Virus record (IMG/VR): IMGVR_UViG_2877245776_000006 | DNA length: 64,000 nt | Strand: one strand, 5' to 3' | Source: a virus | Taxonomy: Duplodnaviria > Heunggongvirae > Uroviricota > Caudoviricetes | Part shown: piece after piece, positions 36,001-48,000 of the stretch | Layout of the letters: every line of letters starts with the position of its first letter | Numbering within the stretch: position 1 is the stretch's first letter | Program-made: the position numbers

Positions 36001-39000
36001 GAATTTCATACGGCAAGGCGGGGATTTATCCGGCTGGGAAAAAGTCTGGGCTTTGAGCGAATGCCGGATGATGAGGATGGCTTCATGGTGTTCAGGATAG
36101 CGGTCTGACTGCCACAGTATTCATTATCGTGTGTAAACCAATTGCAATTCACATTCTGACCCTGCCCCGGCAGGGTTTTTTGTTATCCAGGGGGGGCCAT
36201 TATGGGTGGAAGTAAAGGCGGTGGTGATACCAAAGTAAAACCAACAGCAGCGCAAATAGCACAGGAAGAAGTGGCCTGGAAAGGGTGGCAGGATTACAAA
36301 AATATCCTCCGCCCGGCTGAAGATAACTTCATGGAAAAGGTCGATGACCTGAACAGTGAGCAGCAGTACGACAATATTGCTGGCACCACAAATCTGGGGT
36401 ATCAGAAACAGTTTGGCGAAGCACGGAAGAAGCTGGCGGGTAATCTTGCTCAGTCCGGTGTTGACCCGTCCAGTGGTCGCTTTAACGCGGTAATGAATGC
36501 GAACCAGAGTGATCAGGTAACCGGGCAGATTGACACAACCACACGGGGGCAGGTATCGCAGGCAGATAAGTATGTTGCCGGGCTACAGGATGTTGCAGCT
36601 CTCGGTTCAGGTCAGAAGGCGGATGCGTTACAGAGTTTTAACTCGCTGGCAGACAGCAGTCTGGCAAAAGCTAAATCGGACGCACAGGCTGCGTTTACGA
36701 AACAGCAGGGGCGAGCCTCTCTTGTTGGCGCTGGTTTGGGTGCGGTAGGTGCATATGCGATGCATAAGGCTGGTGGTAGCGGAGGAAGTGGCGGTGCTAA
36801 AACACCGGGCACCGGCGCTAATGCCATTCAGCATCAGGCTCAGAACTGGAGACTGTGATTATGGAGTACGGTAAATACGAAACACTTGCGAGATACGGTT
36901 ATACCGGAGCTGCCCGTCCACAGGGTGACTGGCAGACGTCAGCAGCGCTGACACGCCAACAATACGACGACTGGCGAACCAGATATTTGCCCCGCGTGGC
37001 AAGGCTGGCTGACCTTGGCGAGAACAACAGCCTGATGAATGCACAGCTTGCCCGGGTGGGCGGCCTTGCCACTTCCAGTCTCCGTACAGCGCAGATGGCG
37101 CAGGATAACCAGATGGCGAGATACGGGGTAAGCCGCCCGGATAATCCCGACAGTAATACGCTGGGGTTACGTAATGCCCTGGCAATTGCTGGCGCGAAAA
37201 ATGGTATCCGTGAAGCCGAACAGGATCGCCAGATGAACATACTGACGGGGGCTTCTGCACCGGCAAGACAGAAACTGAGTGTTGGCGGACAACTGGTGGC
37301 AGCGTAAGGAGGAAATATGGGGTACGGCTTACTGGATATTGCGAATCAGTCACGGCGTGAGGCATTACAGGGAATAAGTGACGCAGACCGACGACGTGAA
37401 GAAATTGAGGCTGCGAACAAACAGATGGCGGCGCAACAGAAAGCGCAGAACAAGCAGAATATCGGTACGGGCATTGGTACGGGGGCGGCTATTGGCGCAT
37501 CCGTTGGTGGTCCTGTTGGTGCTGTTGCTGGAGCAGTAATTGGCGGCATTGCTGGTTCTTTGTTTTAAGGAGTGGTGAATGAGCGGATTTGCACAGGGGT
37601 TACTTGCCGGATTCAGCACGGTTGACCAGGCAATGACCCGTCGTAAGGAGCTTGGTCTGCGTGAAGCACAGCTTGCCCGGCAACAGAAAAATAACGAGCG
37701 CGATTTTGAGTTTGCGCAGTCTCAGTTTGAACATAATAAAAACGTTGATCAGCGGAACTTTGATTACAGAGCCAAAGTTGACGACCGTAATTATGCACTG
37801 AAGGAAAGGGAGTTTAACGCTAACCAGAATTACCGGAATGCGTCGCTGGGTATGGAGCAGCAGCGACTCCGGATGCAGAAATACAACCAGCGACGGCTTG
37901 AGTATAACGATATGCTGGCGCGCGATCAGCCTGTGATGGCGGCGCTTGGAAAGGCTGTGGATGCTGGCGATCGGGATGCAGCAATGCGTCTTTACGGCCA
38001 GTTGTCAGAGGGTAATCCGCTGAGGCTGATGGCGAATGATGGCTATGTAGCGAAAGCGGGTCAGGCCGTGAACAACCTGCAAAAAATCTTTGATGACAAG
38101 CCAGACAGGGCTATCGCTTCACTTAATACGCCGGAGAATCTTGATGTCCTTTCCGGGGTGTTTGGCCCGGAACTGCAACAGCGTATTGGCATGCCCGATT
38201 CAACCGGGAAAAAGACGATAAAAGAGGCCAGGATTGGCAGTATAGTACCGGCACAGCAGGAAGGGTACATACTTATCGGCCTTGATCTCACATACAGTGA
38301 TGGCTCTACAGCACATAAACCTGTAACAGAATACGGCAGTGCGCACCCTGATGATCAAACCGTGCTGGCGATACCCGTTGATAAGGCTATCGCTCAGGTC
38401 AGGGATCGCAGCAAATTTGCAGAGATATCGAAAAATTATGGTTATTTTATGCCGAAGCAGCAGGGACTTTCTCTGAAAGAGCTTCAGAAGGGGGCCAGCA
38501 ACGTCGCGGCGGACGCGATCAAGAATGGCGGTAATGCACAGGCTGCGGTGGATGAATATTATGCTGCGACTGGTTCACAACCGCATCAACAGAAAATTCA
38601 GCAACAAAAACTTCAGCAACAGGTTATCAACTGGGCGGGAGATGATCCTGATAAGCTGTCATTTGCCAGAAATGTAGCGGCCCGTCAGCCTGAAATGCTG
38701 GAGCCTCAGAATCAGAAATTGCTGGAGAACGGGTATGCGAATTTTCTCCGTATTCAAAAGGCCAGGGGGGAACAGGCCAGAGATGAAAGTGCTTCATCTG
38801 CATCTCAGTTTATCCGTGGACTGAAACAGAATTACGCCCAGTAATTCACGATATTCCATTAATACCATTTCCTGATGCCCGGCCATTGTGCCGGGTTTTT
38901 TTATGGAGTCTGTATGGCCTATTCAGAGGAACAGCGTCCTGAGGCGCAACTCGGTAACCAGAATCGTAACAGCCTGAACATTCAGCAACCCGGCGAAACT

Positions 39001-45000: not shown

Positions 45001-48000
45001 GCCCGTCGCCGTGAGCTTATCCGTGAGGCAGGACTGGAAGAGAGCGGCGTGGTGGATGCCTGGCAGAAAGCCTACCGTTACTACGTTCCCCTGAAAGGGC
45101 AGGATGTTGACGGTGTGGTGTCACTGCCACGTACAGGCAAGGGATTCACCATCGGCGGGCGTGAAAGTAAGCAGGCCATGGGGCGCGCATCCCGCGCACA
45201 GTCTCCTTCCACTCAGGCGATACAGGATTTGAGCGAATCACTGATCCGCAATCGCAAAAATGAAGTGGGTAACGCCTTCCTGAAACTGGTACAGGATAAT
45301 CCCGACAAGGATTACTGGCAGGTATTCACCGATGACAGACCGGATACCATGCGGACGATTGCAGAGCGCAAGGACCAGGAAACTGGTGAAACCATTCGCG
45401 AAGTTGTCGAACGCCCTGTACCGATGGCAATGATGGCAGACCGGTACTTCACCACCAAAAAGAACGGCAAAACGTACTACATCAAACTCCATGATCCGCG
45501 CCTGATGCGTGCGATGAAGAATATGGGACCGGAAACCAGTAACGCCGTAATCCGCACGCTGGGGAAAGTTAACCGCTTCCTGGCAACGGTGAACACGTCG
45601 TATAACCCGGAATTCCTGGTCAGTAACTTCATCCGTGACGTACAGACGGCGGTGATGAACCTGAAGGCGGAGCAGGGAAGGAGCGACGGCAAACTGAAAG
45701 GGCTGGATAACTTATCCGCACTGGCTGTGGTGAAAGACAGTCGGTCTGCCATGTCTGCCGTATACGCCAGTCTGCGTGGTAAAACCCTCACGGGCAACGG
45801 TGCGCAGTGGCAGAAGGTGTGGAAAGAGTTTGTTGAGGACGGAGGTAAAACCGGCTGGTTTAACATGGGTGACCTTGAAGGCCAGCAGAAGGAAATGGAT
45901 CGCCTTGTATCGCTGGCGAAGGGAGGATGGAAAGGCCAGAGTATCGGTGCATGGAATTCGTTCCTTAACCTTGTCGAGGATGCCAACGGGGCGGTTGAAA
46001 ACGCTCTGCGTCTTTCTGCCTATAAACACGCCCGTGATGCCGGTTTGTCACGCCAGCAGGCGGCGTCTCTTGCCAAAAACATGACGGTGAACTTTAACCG
46101 TCGTGGTGAGCAGGGGGCGCTGATGAACTCGCTGTACATGTTCGCCAACGCCAGTATTCAGGGAACGGCAAATCTGGTGAGAACGCTCGGACATCTTAAT
46201 GGTGAGGGACCTTTACTGGAGCGCCTTCGCTGGAAGAATCTGAATGTTCCGCAGAAAATCGCGCTTGCCGCTGTGGGAGCGGGTTATCTGCTTGGCTCGC
46301 TTAACCGCAGCGTGGCGGGTGAGGATGATGACGGGGTTAACTGGTATGACAAAGTACCGTCTCATGTGAAAGAGCGTAACCTCGTCATTATGAAATCGGT
46401 GTTCGGGGGCAAGGCCGGAGAGTACTGGAGTATTCCTCTGCCTTACGGGTACAACGTTTTCTTCCTGCTTGGTCACACAGCCGAAGGGGTGGCAGCGGGC
46501 GACCTGACCGCTTCACGTGCTGCCGGTAATGTTGTTGGTGGTGTGCTTGGGGCATTCAGTCCTGTGGGCAGTGAAACGTCGGAAACACTGTCCGGGGCAT
46601 TGCTGAAAAATGCAGCGCCGACCATTCTGCGTCCGTTTGCGAACCTTGCCATGAATGAAAACTTCATGGGGGCGCAGATTTACCAGGAGAACATGCCGTT
46701 TGGTACACCAAAACCTGACAGCCAGCTGGGAAGACATTCAACGCCAGAAGCGTACAAGGCGTTTGCATCCTGGCTGAATGCGTTCTCAGGTGGCAGCCAG
46801 TACCGTCCCGGCGCGGTGGATATCACACCGGAATCGCTGAAATTCTGGATTGACTATATCTCCGGAGGGACAGGGCGCTTCATTTCCAAAACCACGGATG
46901 CGGCGGTGAAATCGCTGAATGGTATTGATATACCGGAACAGCAGGTGCCCTTCCTGGGGAAAATTTCGGGTGAGGTGATGCCGTATGCAGACCAGCAGAA
47001 GATGTACGACCGGATGACAGAGGTTGCGCAGTATCACGCAGAGCTGAAGAGTCTGACCGGTGCAGAAAGAACGGCGTTCATTGACGAGAACAACGGAAAA
47101 TTGTCGATGAACGGGCTTATGCAGGATACCCGGAAGAGACTGAAGGATTTGCGCAAACAGCGCGATGCCATTTATGCCGACAGTTCTCTCAGTCTGGCGC
47201 AGCAGGCGGCGATGGTGAAATCGGTAGAGCGGGATATGAAGGTTGCCGTGGATCGGTTTAACCGCGAGTACAACAAAAAAGTGGGAGTGGATTAACAGAA
47301 ATGGCCCCGTACGGAAGTGCGGGGCTGATTAAGAAATAAACACACATTAACCTGTAATAACCGGAGCTATTAACATATAGTCAGAAAGAGTATTTCATGT
47401 GAGACAGAGAGCCGATTTATGTTTAATGAAGAAAAAGTTGCGCAAATGGCAGCGTATTTGCTGAAAAAGCATGGCGGATCTATGCGTTTCATTAAGCTGA
47501 TGTATCTCTCTGACCGCAAAGCAATGGAGTCTTTAACCGGGAAGGGGAGAGGTTTGAATGCTCCCCCACAATTCCCCGGCATCAAATCTCCATGCAGGTG
47601 AACTATTTTACCCCCAGCGGCAAATCGCAAAACAATCAGTGCGATCGAAATGGCAGCCACTACAATTGCAAATGCTTCAGGCTAGGTCATTGGCGTACCT
47701 CCTTTGGCGGTTCTGGTAGCGGCATCCAGAACAAGGCATTCCCTAACCACGATAAAGTGCCGTCGCTCAACTCCACGTATTCCCCTTGTACCTGTCCTGC
47801 CATATACTCGCCGTGCTTTGAATAAATTAAAATCCAATCATCTTGAGCGGGCATTCGCGCACTACAGCTTATCCAACCATCCGGAGTTACCGGCACTGGC
47901 TGAGCGGTATAAAGCGGTGTTATATCTGCCCGAAAATTACATGCTTTATGCAGCCGCACCCACCGTTCGACTTCTGCTTTGTCAGGATACATACCAGTGA

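Follow-up and report, generated by a model that had tools for sequence, protein, structure and literature searches.

The 64,000-nucleotide stretch of viral DNA analysed here (the window; Caudoviricetes, IMG/VR record IMGVR_UViG_2877245776_000006) contains a gene for a giant protein of 2793 amino acids (aa). We propose, at a probability of roughly 0.62, that this is an internal, ejected polyvalent protein of Shiga toxin (Stx) podophages of the 933W/phi24B type, that is, a packaged mosaic in which a payload cassette is combined with a common C-terminal module and in which zincin domains would cleave after ejection. The protein is a mosaic of a C-terminal module of about 900 aa, found throughout the lineage, and a central cassette; the module and the zincin cassette have separate distributions. 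The gene was recovered from 186 phage records at 90 to 100% nucleotide identity, nearly all of them Stx-converting short-tailed phages of Escherichia coli and Shigella.

38914..47295, plus strand: coding sequence of the giant polyvalent protein, orthologue of YP_009226900, of phi24B vb_24B_48 and of the giant open reading frames (ORFs) of Stx phages of the VT2-Sakai/933W type

The type of protein, its protease family and its presence in virions are already known from work of 2013, 2017 and 2026. What is added here is a corrected domain map, with two HExxH domains outside the Pfam models, LPD1 as part of the first zincin-like domain and a MuF-C domain that, by sequence, is not a peptidase, together with a C-terminal module that lacks a solved relative and is located in a gene that phage PTXU04 needs for plaques. 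The giant gene makes up about 14% of the genome. Stx phages spread Shiga toxin genes, and the role of the protein is relevant to their establishment in new hosts of E. coli and Shigella.

Domain architecture of the giant protein

Pfam scans were performed with the whole protein and with nine segments of it, at expectation (E) values up to 10. The whole protein matched LPD5 (aa 1051-1200, E = 1e-44), LPD1 (aa 1361-1440, 1e-23), MuF_C (aa 1750-1837, 2e-17) and LPD38 (aa 2476-2681, 3e-48), and the complete domain order is an N-terminal region, an acidic linker, pre-LPD5/LPD5, zincin 1, zincin 2, MuF-C and the C-terminal module of about 900 aa that includes LPD38. The preliminary description, made from the DNA alone, had named zincin, large-polyvalent-protein, methyltransferase and helicase domains as candidates. 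The first two kinds were found, and neither methyltransferase, helicase nor LPD36 gave a match in the whole-protein or segment scans. Its placement of the protein in the polyvalent class holds, LPD5, LPD1, MuF_C and LPD38 all being domains of Iyer et al. 2017.

The HExxH motif occurs twice, as HEWFH at aa 1284-1288 and as HEIIH at aa 1551-1555. The composition of the protein predicts 0.038 such motifs, and two or more were present in 0.05% of 20,000 shuffles. The HEWFH motif had been recognized earlier as lying in a zincin-like context, a view borne out by the CLCA_X match and the structural model described below, and the second motif had been overlooked.

The first third of the protein has two parts, which lie upstream of the central cassette.

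38914..40263, plus strand: N-terminal region, aa 1-450, rich in Ala and Gly, no family fold found
40264..41610, plus strand: acidic segment rich in Pro and Gln, aa 451-899, defined by composition

In the N-terminal region, aa 181-200 are weakly hydrophobic and aa 405-433 resemble a Gly zipper. Relatives of the region were confined to enterobacterial prophages, apart from aa 161-408, which were also found in Vibrio phages (29% identity); a word-indexed homologue search with aa 1-470 returned relatives from E. coli and Salmonella only. NCBI names some N-terminal fragments 'LPD38', and we tested the N-terminal region for kinship with the C-terminal module and found the two to be unrelated. In the acidic segment, Asp and Glu make up 17.8% of residues and the isoelectric point (pI) is 4.8, in agreement with the acidic stretch noted in the preliminary description. 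The segment is also rich in Pro and Gln and gave no family match in the Pfam segment scans, and it is probably a disordered linker. Variability among Stx phages was highest in aa 1-899, where identity fell to 89.7%, versus at least 97.8% in the C-terminal part.

The central cassette contains a CLCA_X-related zincin-like domain

The central cassette begins with a basic, helical part and continues into the first zincin-like domain.

41611..42513, plus strand: pre-LPD5 (aa 900-1050, basic, helical) and Pfam LPD5 (aa 1051-1200), from the Pfam match (E = 1e-44) and the AlphaFold model
42457..43233, plus strand: zincin-like domain 1, CLCA_X family, aa ~1182-1440, from the NCBIfam profile, the model and conservation
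42763..42777, plus strand: HEWFH, aa 1284-1288, which with D1291 forms the family signature HEW[FWL]H[AGS]xD
43036..43059, plus strand: E1375-MAARAF-E1382, a helix in the model, inside Pfam LPD1, with a candidate third zinc ligand

The NCBIfam profile NF041907 ('CLCA_X family protein') matched aa 1182-1437 with an E value of 5.9e-44, aligning positions 3-245 of the 250 in the profile. By sequence, zincin 1 shows clear homology to CLCA_X, at 150 bits where the NCBI rule for strict membership demands 260. The confident AlphaFold model displays zincin topology at the HEWFH domain, in the arrangement of a gluzincin: the HExxH helix follows a three-stranded sheet and is itself followed by a helix carrying a Glu ligand. 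In this model, zincin 1 adopts a zincin fold; the residues presumed to bind metal and to catalyse are strictly conserved. The pre-LPD5/LPD5 part was modelled with very high confidence and has a pI of 9.55.

A homologue search with aa 1181-1750 retrieved 1222 relatives; among the 120 matches listed, HEW[FWLM]H was kept in all 77 proteins that covered the site. Many of these carry a second HExxH about 230 residues downstream of the first. In two alignments (n = 79 and n = 41), H1284, E1285, W1286, H1288, D1291, E1375, A1378, R1379, F1381 and E1382 were invariant or nearly so, E1375 being invariant. Zincin 1 matched 5029 representative clusters at E <= 1e-10, and most of the best matches were proteins of 2000 to 5700 aa. 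The signature HEW[FWL]H[AGS]xD was retained in 139 of 145 representatives, and zincin 1 was accompanied by pre-LPD5 in 139 and by LPD5 in 122 of these. Pfam covers neither HExxH core, here or in the 41 relatives that were scanned, and LPD1 (aa 1361-1440; 43036-43233) is in this protein the C-terminal Glu-helix part of zincin 1 and not an independent domain.

The cassette also exists apart from the giant protein. In other proteins, the zincin cassette is joined to RadC, ART and InPase domains, and in one metagenome contig (ENA ERZ28653431, 8001-10625) it stands alone as an 874-aa protein composed of pre-LPD5, LPD5, zincin 1/LPD1 and zincin 2. This protein belongs to a conjugative element, in which TrbL-type transfer genes lie on one side of it and a MobA/MobL relaxase on the other; its neighbours include TrbL and a Peptidase_M23-TrbL fusion as well as TnpV and the reverse transcriptase of a group II intron. 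Two further relatives were located in phage-like contexts.

A probable second zincin-like domain precedes MuF-C

Two further domains lie between zincin 1 and the C-terminal module.

43342..43833, plus strand: probable zincin-like domain 2, aa ~1477-1640, with HEIIH at nucleotides (nt) 43564-43578 and conserved E1602 and A1605
44161..44424, plus strand: MuF_C domain (PF18819), aa 1750-1837, Pfam E = 1.6e-17

The HExxH of this domain was conserved in about 40 distant homologues, and E1602, some 50 residues further on, is likewise conserved in relatives. In the model, a helix and strands come before the HExxH helix, with predicted local distance difference test (pLDDT) values of 50 to 90, and the only family hint was Peptidase_M76 (E = 0.15). 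Taken with the motif, the model suggests that aa ~1477-1640 form a probable second zincin-like domain. We considered whether zincin 2 could be a duplicate of zincin 1, and this was not established: the two gave a weak local alignment of the last strands and the HExxH helix (E = 0.007, probability 5%).

The PDB was searched by sequence with the whole protein, with a profile of aa 900-1720 and with the zincin 2 profile, and nothing meaningful was returned. A match to tetanus toxin (E = 0.03) was dismissed, as the alignment lay in a Lys/Glu-rich stretch, and so was one to IrrE (E = 0.66).

PF18819 scored 63.9 to 68.3 bits, versus a gathering cut-off of 27.6. MuF_C is defined as PBECR, a predicted RNase domain (Iyer et al. 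2017, PMC5512222). By this sequence assignment, the MuF-C of the giant protein is an RNase-like domain and not a metallopeptidase; the HExxH domains sit about 200 to 570 residues upstream of it.

The C-terminal module is shared across podophages

The last part of the protein is the conserved module.

44551..47292, plus strand: conserved C-terminal module, aa 1880-2793, largely made of helices and with a single beta domain
46339..46956, plus strand: Pfam LPD38, aa 2476-2681, inside the C-terminal module

The module was predicted with confidence, has no solved structural relative, and contains long predicted helices as well as a weakly hydrophobic helix at aa 2445-2467. It is common to Stx, Bcep22-like, GP4-like, Xuquatrovirus and Vibrio podophages and to a Methanosarcina virus. 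Identities were 41% in Vibrio phages, below 60% in Burkholderia Bcep22-like phages, 27 to 28% over 83% of the length in Ralstonia GP4-like phages, where the annotation reads 'DarB-like', and 22 to 24% in Bacillus phages. The module recurs as the terminal part of many giant phage proteins with different payloads. Its partners in other proteins are methyltransferase, ART, InPase, RelA/SpoT or lytic transglycosylase domains, and in metagenomic proteins methyltransferase, ART-PolyVal, InPase or LPD5/LPD1.

The Methanosarcina virus is MetMV (MK170447.1, 40102-42492), whose homologue is 28% identical over 91% of the 914 aa (E = 1e-78). This archaeal homologue gives an unexpected reach across domains of life to a module otherwise seen in bacterial podophages.

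The last 730 residues of the Pondi protein aligned with the module by hhalign (E = 9e-32) and by Foldseek (template modelling score, 0.67), and the giant gene of PTXU04 is 93.5% identical to the Pondi gene. In PTXU04, knock-down of the gene for the 2198-aa 'putative polyvalent protein' (gp25) abolishes plaques (PMC11879866). By analogy with this relative, the C-terminal module is probably essential.

The phi24B orthologue is an abundant virion protein

The phi24B protein vb_24B_48 ('gp47' in the preprint) is 96% identical to the giant protein over its full length. It has been described as an abundant virion protein that is unseen in the cryo-electron microscopy (cryo-EM) map and has been proposed to be an encapsidated ejection protein (bioRxiv 10.64898/2026.04.10.717836); the authors place it inside the capsid because it is absent from the map. 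According to the supplementary table of the preprint, it yielded 10,962 peptide-spectrum matches (PSMs) in purified virions, second to the major capsid protein, and through this orthologue the virion protein proposed in the preliminary description has experimental backing. Scaling of PSMs per residue gives a crude copy number of about 15 when referred to the portal and about 47 when referred to the capsid protein. The giant protein is unmentioned in a paper on the proteomics of enterohaemorrhagic E. coli phages.

Peptides of the phi24B protein extended from aa 19-41 to aa 2778-2789 and included the tryptic peptide with HEWFH. Mass decreases along the series of gel slices: the portal peaked in EA1810, the capsid protein in EA1816 and the adaptors in EA1826. 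The signal of the giant protein peaked in the first slice, above the 724-aa portal, and fell over the next eight. In stored phi24B virions, the giant protein is mostly a very large, essentially full-length species and not a set of domain-sized pieces; the tail of smaller species could be degradation.

A related observation comes from the Bcep22-like phage JC1, in which a giant protein that shares the C-terminal module was virion associated by mass spectrometry, along with two proteins encoded before the giant gene.

A proposed role in the newly entered cell, and its alternatives

In the mechanism that we favour, the C-terminal module would be the common part that serves for incorporation into the head and/or for exit through the tail and crossing of the envelope, and the central cassette would be a payload with its site of action in the cytoplasm of the cell just entered. 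A cytoplasmic payload is suggested because the cassette is found in conjugative elements and is joined elsewhere to RadC, ART and pyrophosphatase domains. The zincin domains would be inactive while in the head. After ejection, they would cleave the polyprotein that contains them, in the way that CLCA1 is cut by the related CLCA_N domain, and/or proteins of the host, defence factors for example, and cutting would free the modules at the start of infection. We place zincin action after ejection because of the general proposal of Iyer et al. and the self-cleaving CLCA relative. An anti-defence role of the giant protein, as raised in the preliminary description, is plausible from the class to which the protein belongs. 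The domain map points to H1284, E1285, H1288, D1291, E1375, H1551, E1552, H1555 and E1602 as the residues of interest. As a tentative extension of this scheme, the C-terminal module may be an uncharacterised, essential genome-delivery device with interchangeable effector cassettes, the CLCA_X zincin may cleave itself after ejection, and in conjugative elements the cassette may be a factor of general use for establishment or against defence.

Several points weigh against the proposal of an ejected, zincin-processed mosaic. The reported phi24B data are limited to presence in the virion and absence from the map, ejection into the cell is a proposal, and stored phi24B virions give no sign of processing before ejection. 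The NF041907 score is below the curated cut-off, and the second zincin, of moderate confidence, is read from a model of that quality and a motif. Essentiality is known from the distant relative PTXU04, where knock-down of the whole gene leaves the modules unseparated. The third of the protein formed by aa 1-899 is without an assigned fold. In the literature searched, we found no activity assay for the giant protein or for any CLCA_X, LPD5, LPD1 or LPD38 protein, and on the function of the Stx-phage giant ORF or of LPD1, LPD5 and LPD38 we found only Iyer 2017 and the phi24B preprint.

The phi24B preprint sees the protein instead as an ejection protein that breaches the envelope, forming a trans-periplasmic conduit while its metallopeptidase digests peptidoglycan to let the conduit extend to the inner membrane, with no effector role in the cytoplasm. 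A podophage must somehow cross the periplasm, and several observations fit such a function: the protein is abundant and invisible in the virion map, so that it is probably internal; it has weakly hydrophobic segments at aa 181-200, 405-433 and 2445-2467; among relatives of the C-terminal module, some have a lytic transglycosylase domain; and no other cell-wall hydrolase is among the proteins detected in phi24B virions. However, the peptidase named in the preprint is MuF-C, a domain that both Pfam and Iyer et al. class as PBECR and RNase-like, and peptidoglycan digestion fits the fold neighbours of the zincins poorly. Nor does the distribution of the cassette favour this explanation, because the cassette stands alone in a conjugative element that already has an M23 peptidase fused to TrbL, and the RadC, ART and pyrophosphatase domains to which it is joined elsewhere have intracellular targets. 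We regard this explanation as rather unlikely. Our proposal leaves room for the C-terminal module to act as a conduit, and the dispute concerns only a role of the zincins in peptidoglycan digestion. In another scheme, modelled on ArdC, the basic pre-LPD5/LPD5 part would bind the incoming DNA and the zincin would act on DNA-bound host proteins such as restriction enzymes, so that the genome is protected directly, with no processing of a polyprotein. The pI of 9.55 and the nearly constant co-occurrence of pre-LPD5, LPD5 and zincin 1 (139/145) are in keeping with this, as is the presence of the cassette in both phages and conjugative elements, which is also where ArdC-type proteins occur (PMC5512222). 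Yet ArdC-N gave no sequence match, DNA-binding families gave a single insignificant one, and the DNA binding is putative. The best fold neighbours differ from DNA-linked zincins, and Iyer et al. viewed LPD5 as possibly enzymatic (PMC5512222). On balance, direct escort of the DNA appears unlikely.

A further alternative is a purely structural giant, which would serve as a head scaffold or in the manner of a tape measure or fibre and whose HExxH motifs would be chance occurrences or relics without function. The very large size, the abundance in virions and a gene placed last in the morphogenesis cluster would suit such a protein. A search for tandem repeats in the giant gene found none, and Pfam domains of enzyme-like character were detected, so the protein is not composed only of the tape-measure or fibre-like repeats that the preliminary description had held out as the opposing outcome. 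Moreover, two HExxH motifs are far above chance expectation and strictly conserved across thousands of distant relatives, and the phage is a short-tailed podovirus without a tape measure, in which the giant protein is seen in neither the tail nor the capsid shell. Tape-measure or fibre identity was rejected on the lack of repeats, the lack of a match to any tape-measure or fibre family and the podovirus host, and we consider a structural giant very improbable.

Start site and upstream signals

In this Stx podophage, the giant gene closes the terminase-portal-capsid-tail cluster, and a match to PHROG 616 spans the whole length of its product. The ORF is single and uninterrupted (38875..47295, plus strand). 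Counted from its first ATG, it encodes 2806 aa; a start at ATG 38914 gives the protein of 2793 aa and 308 kDa.

38877..38903, plus strand: terminator-like hairpin, GCCCGGC-loop-GCCGGGT, followed by a run of T, from a pattern scan, sequence reading and RNA folds
38905..38908, plus strand: GGAG ribosome-binding site, 5 nt before ATG 38914, read from the sequence

The stem (38877-38896) is rich in G+C, with seven pairs of which six are G-C, and is present in both the minimum-free-energy and the centroid RNA folds; it begins 33 nt past the stop codon (38844) of the gene that precedes it. ATG 38875 is disfavoured as the start because the terminator hairpin overlaps this first in-frame ATG. The preliminary description had likewise chosen 38914 within an uninterrupted ORF, and the hairpin with its T-run, the GGAG and the RefSeq annotation all agree with it: in Shigella phage 75/02 Stx (NC_029120, Sepvirinae), a 100%-identical gene, labelled 'LPD5 domain-containing protein', is annotated with the same start. 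In the GenBank record of phi24B, unlike RefSeq, the upstream ATG was chosen. The phi24B peptide list holds no peptide that spans the N terminus, leaving mass spectrometry undecided between the two starts.

Late transcription in lambdoid phages proceeds under Q antitermination, and for this reason a terminator upstream of the giant gene would be no bar to its expression.

In older GenBank records, numerous short ORFs are annotated within the giant gene or on its opposite strand; examples are 19 'hypothetical proteins' in AP005153 and three antisense ORFs in phi24B. These short ORFs look like artefacts because the long ORF is continuous, conserved and verified by mass spectrometry.

Neighbouring genes and other features of the window

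Four genes directly upstream of the giant gene have counterparts in the phi24B virion.

36202..38844, plus strand: upstream genes for proteins of 218, 150, 83 and 421 aa, whose phi24B counterparts are in virions (the first three at 36202-37568, the 421-aa gene at 37579-38844)

The counterparts of the 218-, 150-, 83- and 421-aa proteins yielded 523, 129, 13 and 1634 PSMs, respectively. The 83-aa protein resembles Gly-zipper/class II bacteriocin-like sequences and has weak PHROG matches to tape-measure and endolysin segments. The 421-aa protein had no Pfam match. Its phi24B counterpart ('gp48 Transcription factor?') was dismissed by the authors as a contaminant because of its annotation (bioRxiv 10.64898/2026.04.10.717836); it peaks in the slice of its own size, and its PSMs are comparable to those of the portal and above those of the nozzle. 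The 421-aa protein may be a real internal virion protein. By analogy with JC1, the four upstream genes and the giant gene probably form one cassette of internal or ejection proteins.

Elsewhere in the window, Rfam matches above the gathering score comprised an STnc100 small RNA (sRNA) adjoining the anti-GcvB sRNA AgvB on the opposite strand (12390-12648) and three copies of sRNA-Xcc1 (7101-7184, 50855-50940 and 51392-51480). ARAGORN found no tRNA genes across the whole window.

Comparison with known systems

CLCA_X has been described as the phage- and plasmid-borne sister group of the metazoan CLCA metalloprotease domain, with an HExxH...D signature and often within very long proteins (Lenart et al. 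2013, PMC3650047). Its profile matches zincin 1 almost from end to end, at a score under the curated cut-off, and the two have in common an HExxH followed by a conserved Asp, a phage-borne gene and a very long protein in which no other domains were known at the time of that paper. The spacing of the Asp is HExxHxxD in the present alignments, whereas it is written HExxHxxxD in PMC3650047.

Polyvalent proteins have been proposed to be packaged, injected and processed by their own metallopeptidase domains (Iyer et al. 2017, PMC5512222). The giant protein unites unrelated domains, including LPD5, LPD1, MuF_C and LPD38, in one polypeptide of 2793 aa and is encoded in a phage packaging and late-gene context. 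Judged by this domain content, it is a polyvalent protein in the sense of Iyer 2017, and an ordinary one for its class. Like the proteins described there (PMC5512222), it is a giant of several domains whose gene lies next to virion genes, and it has LPD5, LPD1, MuF-C/PBECR and LPD38 together with zincin-like domains; LPD38 was reported as confined to phage-type polyvalent proteins (PMC5512222). It differs in lacking the methylase-helicase, ART and ArdC-N domains, and the Pfam models derived from that work miss both HExxH cores.

The phi24B gp47 is the full-length orthologue, abundant in virions and absent from the cryo-EM map, and the difference is one of reading: the preprint names a MuF-C metallopeptidase that digests peptidoglycan, whereas we place the HExxH domains at aa 1182-1440 and ~1477-1640, and these look like protein-cutting zincins.

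The 'DarB-like antirestriction' proteins of Bcep22, JC1 and Ralstonia GP4 are encoded at the corresponding place in these related podophages, where the morphogenesis module ends, and have a homologous C-terminal module. The resemblance is limited to that module, and the methyltransferase-helicase pair that defines DarB of P1 is absent here. Identity as a P1 DarB-type antirestriction protein was rejected on the lack of LPD36, methyltransferase and helicase domains, the PHROG 'DarB-like' match covering aa 2351-2681 only. PTXU04 gp25 likewise shares the C-terminal module and differs in its N-terminal two thirds.

In its proposed course, the giant protein resembles T7 gp14/15/16, P22 gp7/16/20 and the N4 virion RNA polymerase, internal head proteins that are released through a short tail at infection. 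The N4 polymerase is also a giant protein and, according to Iyer et al. (PMC5512222), is fused to zincin-like domains.

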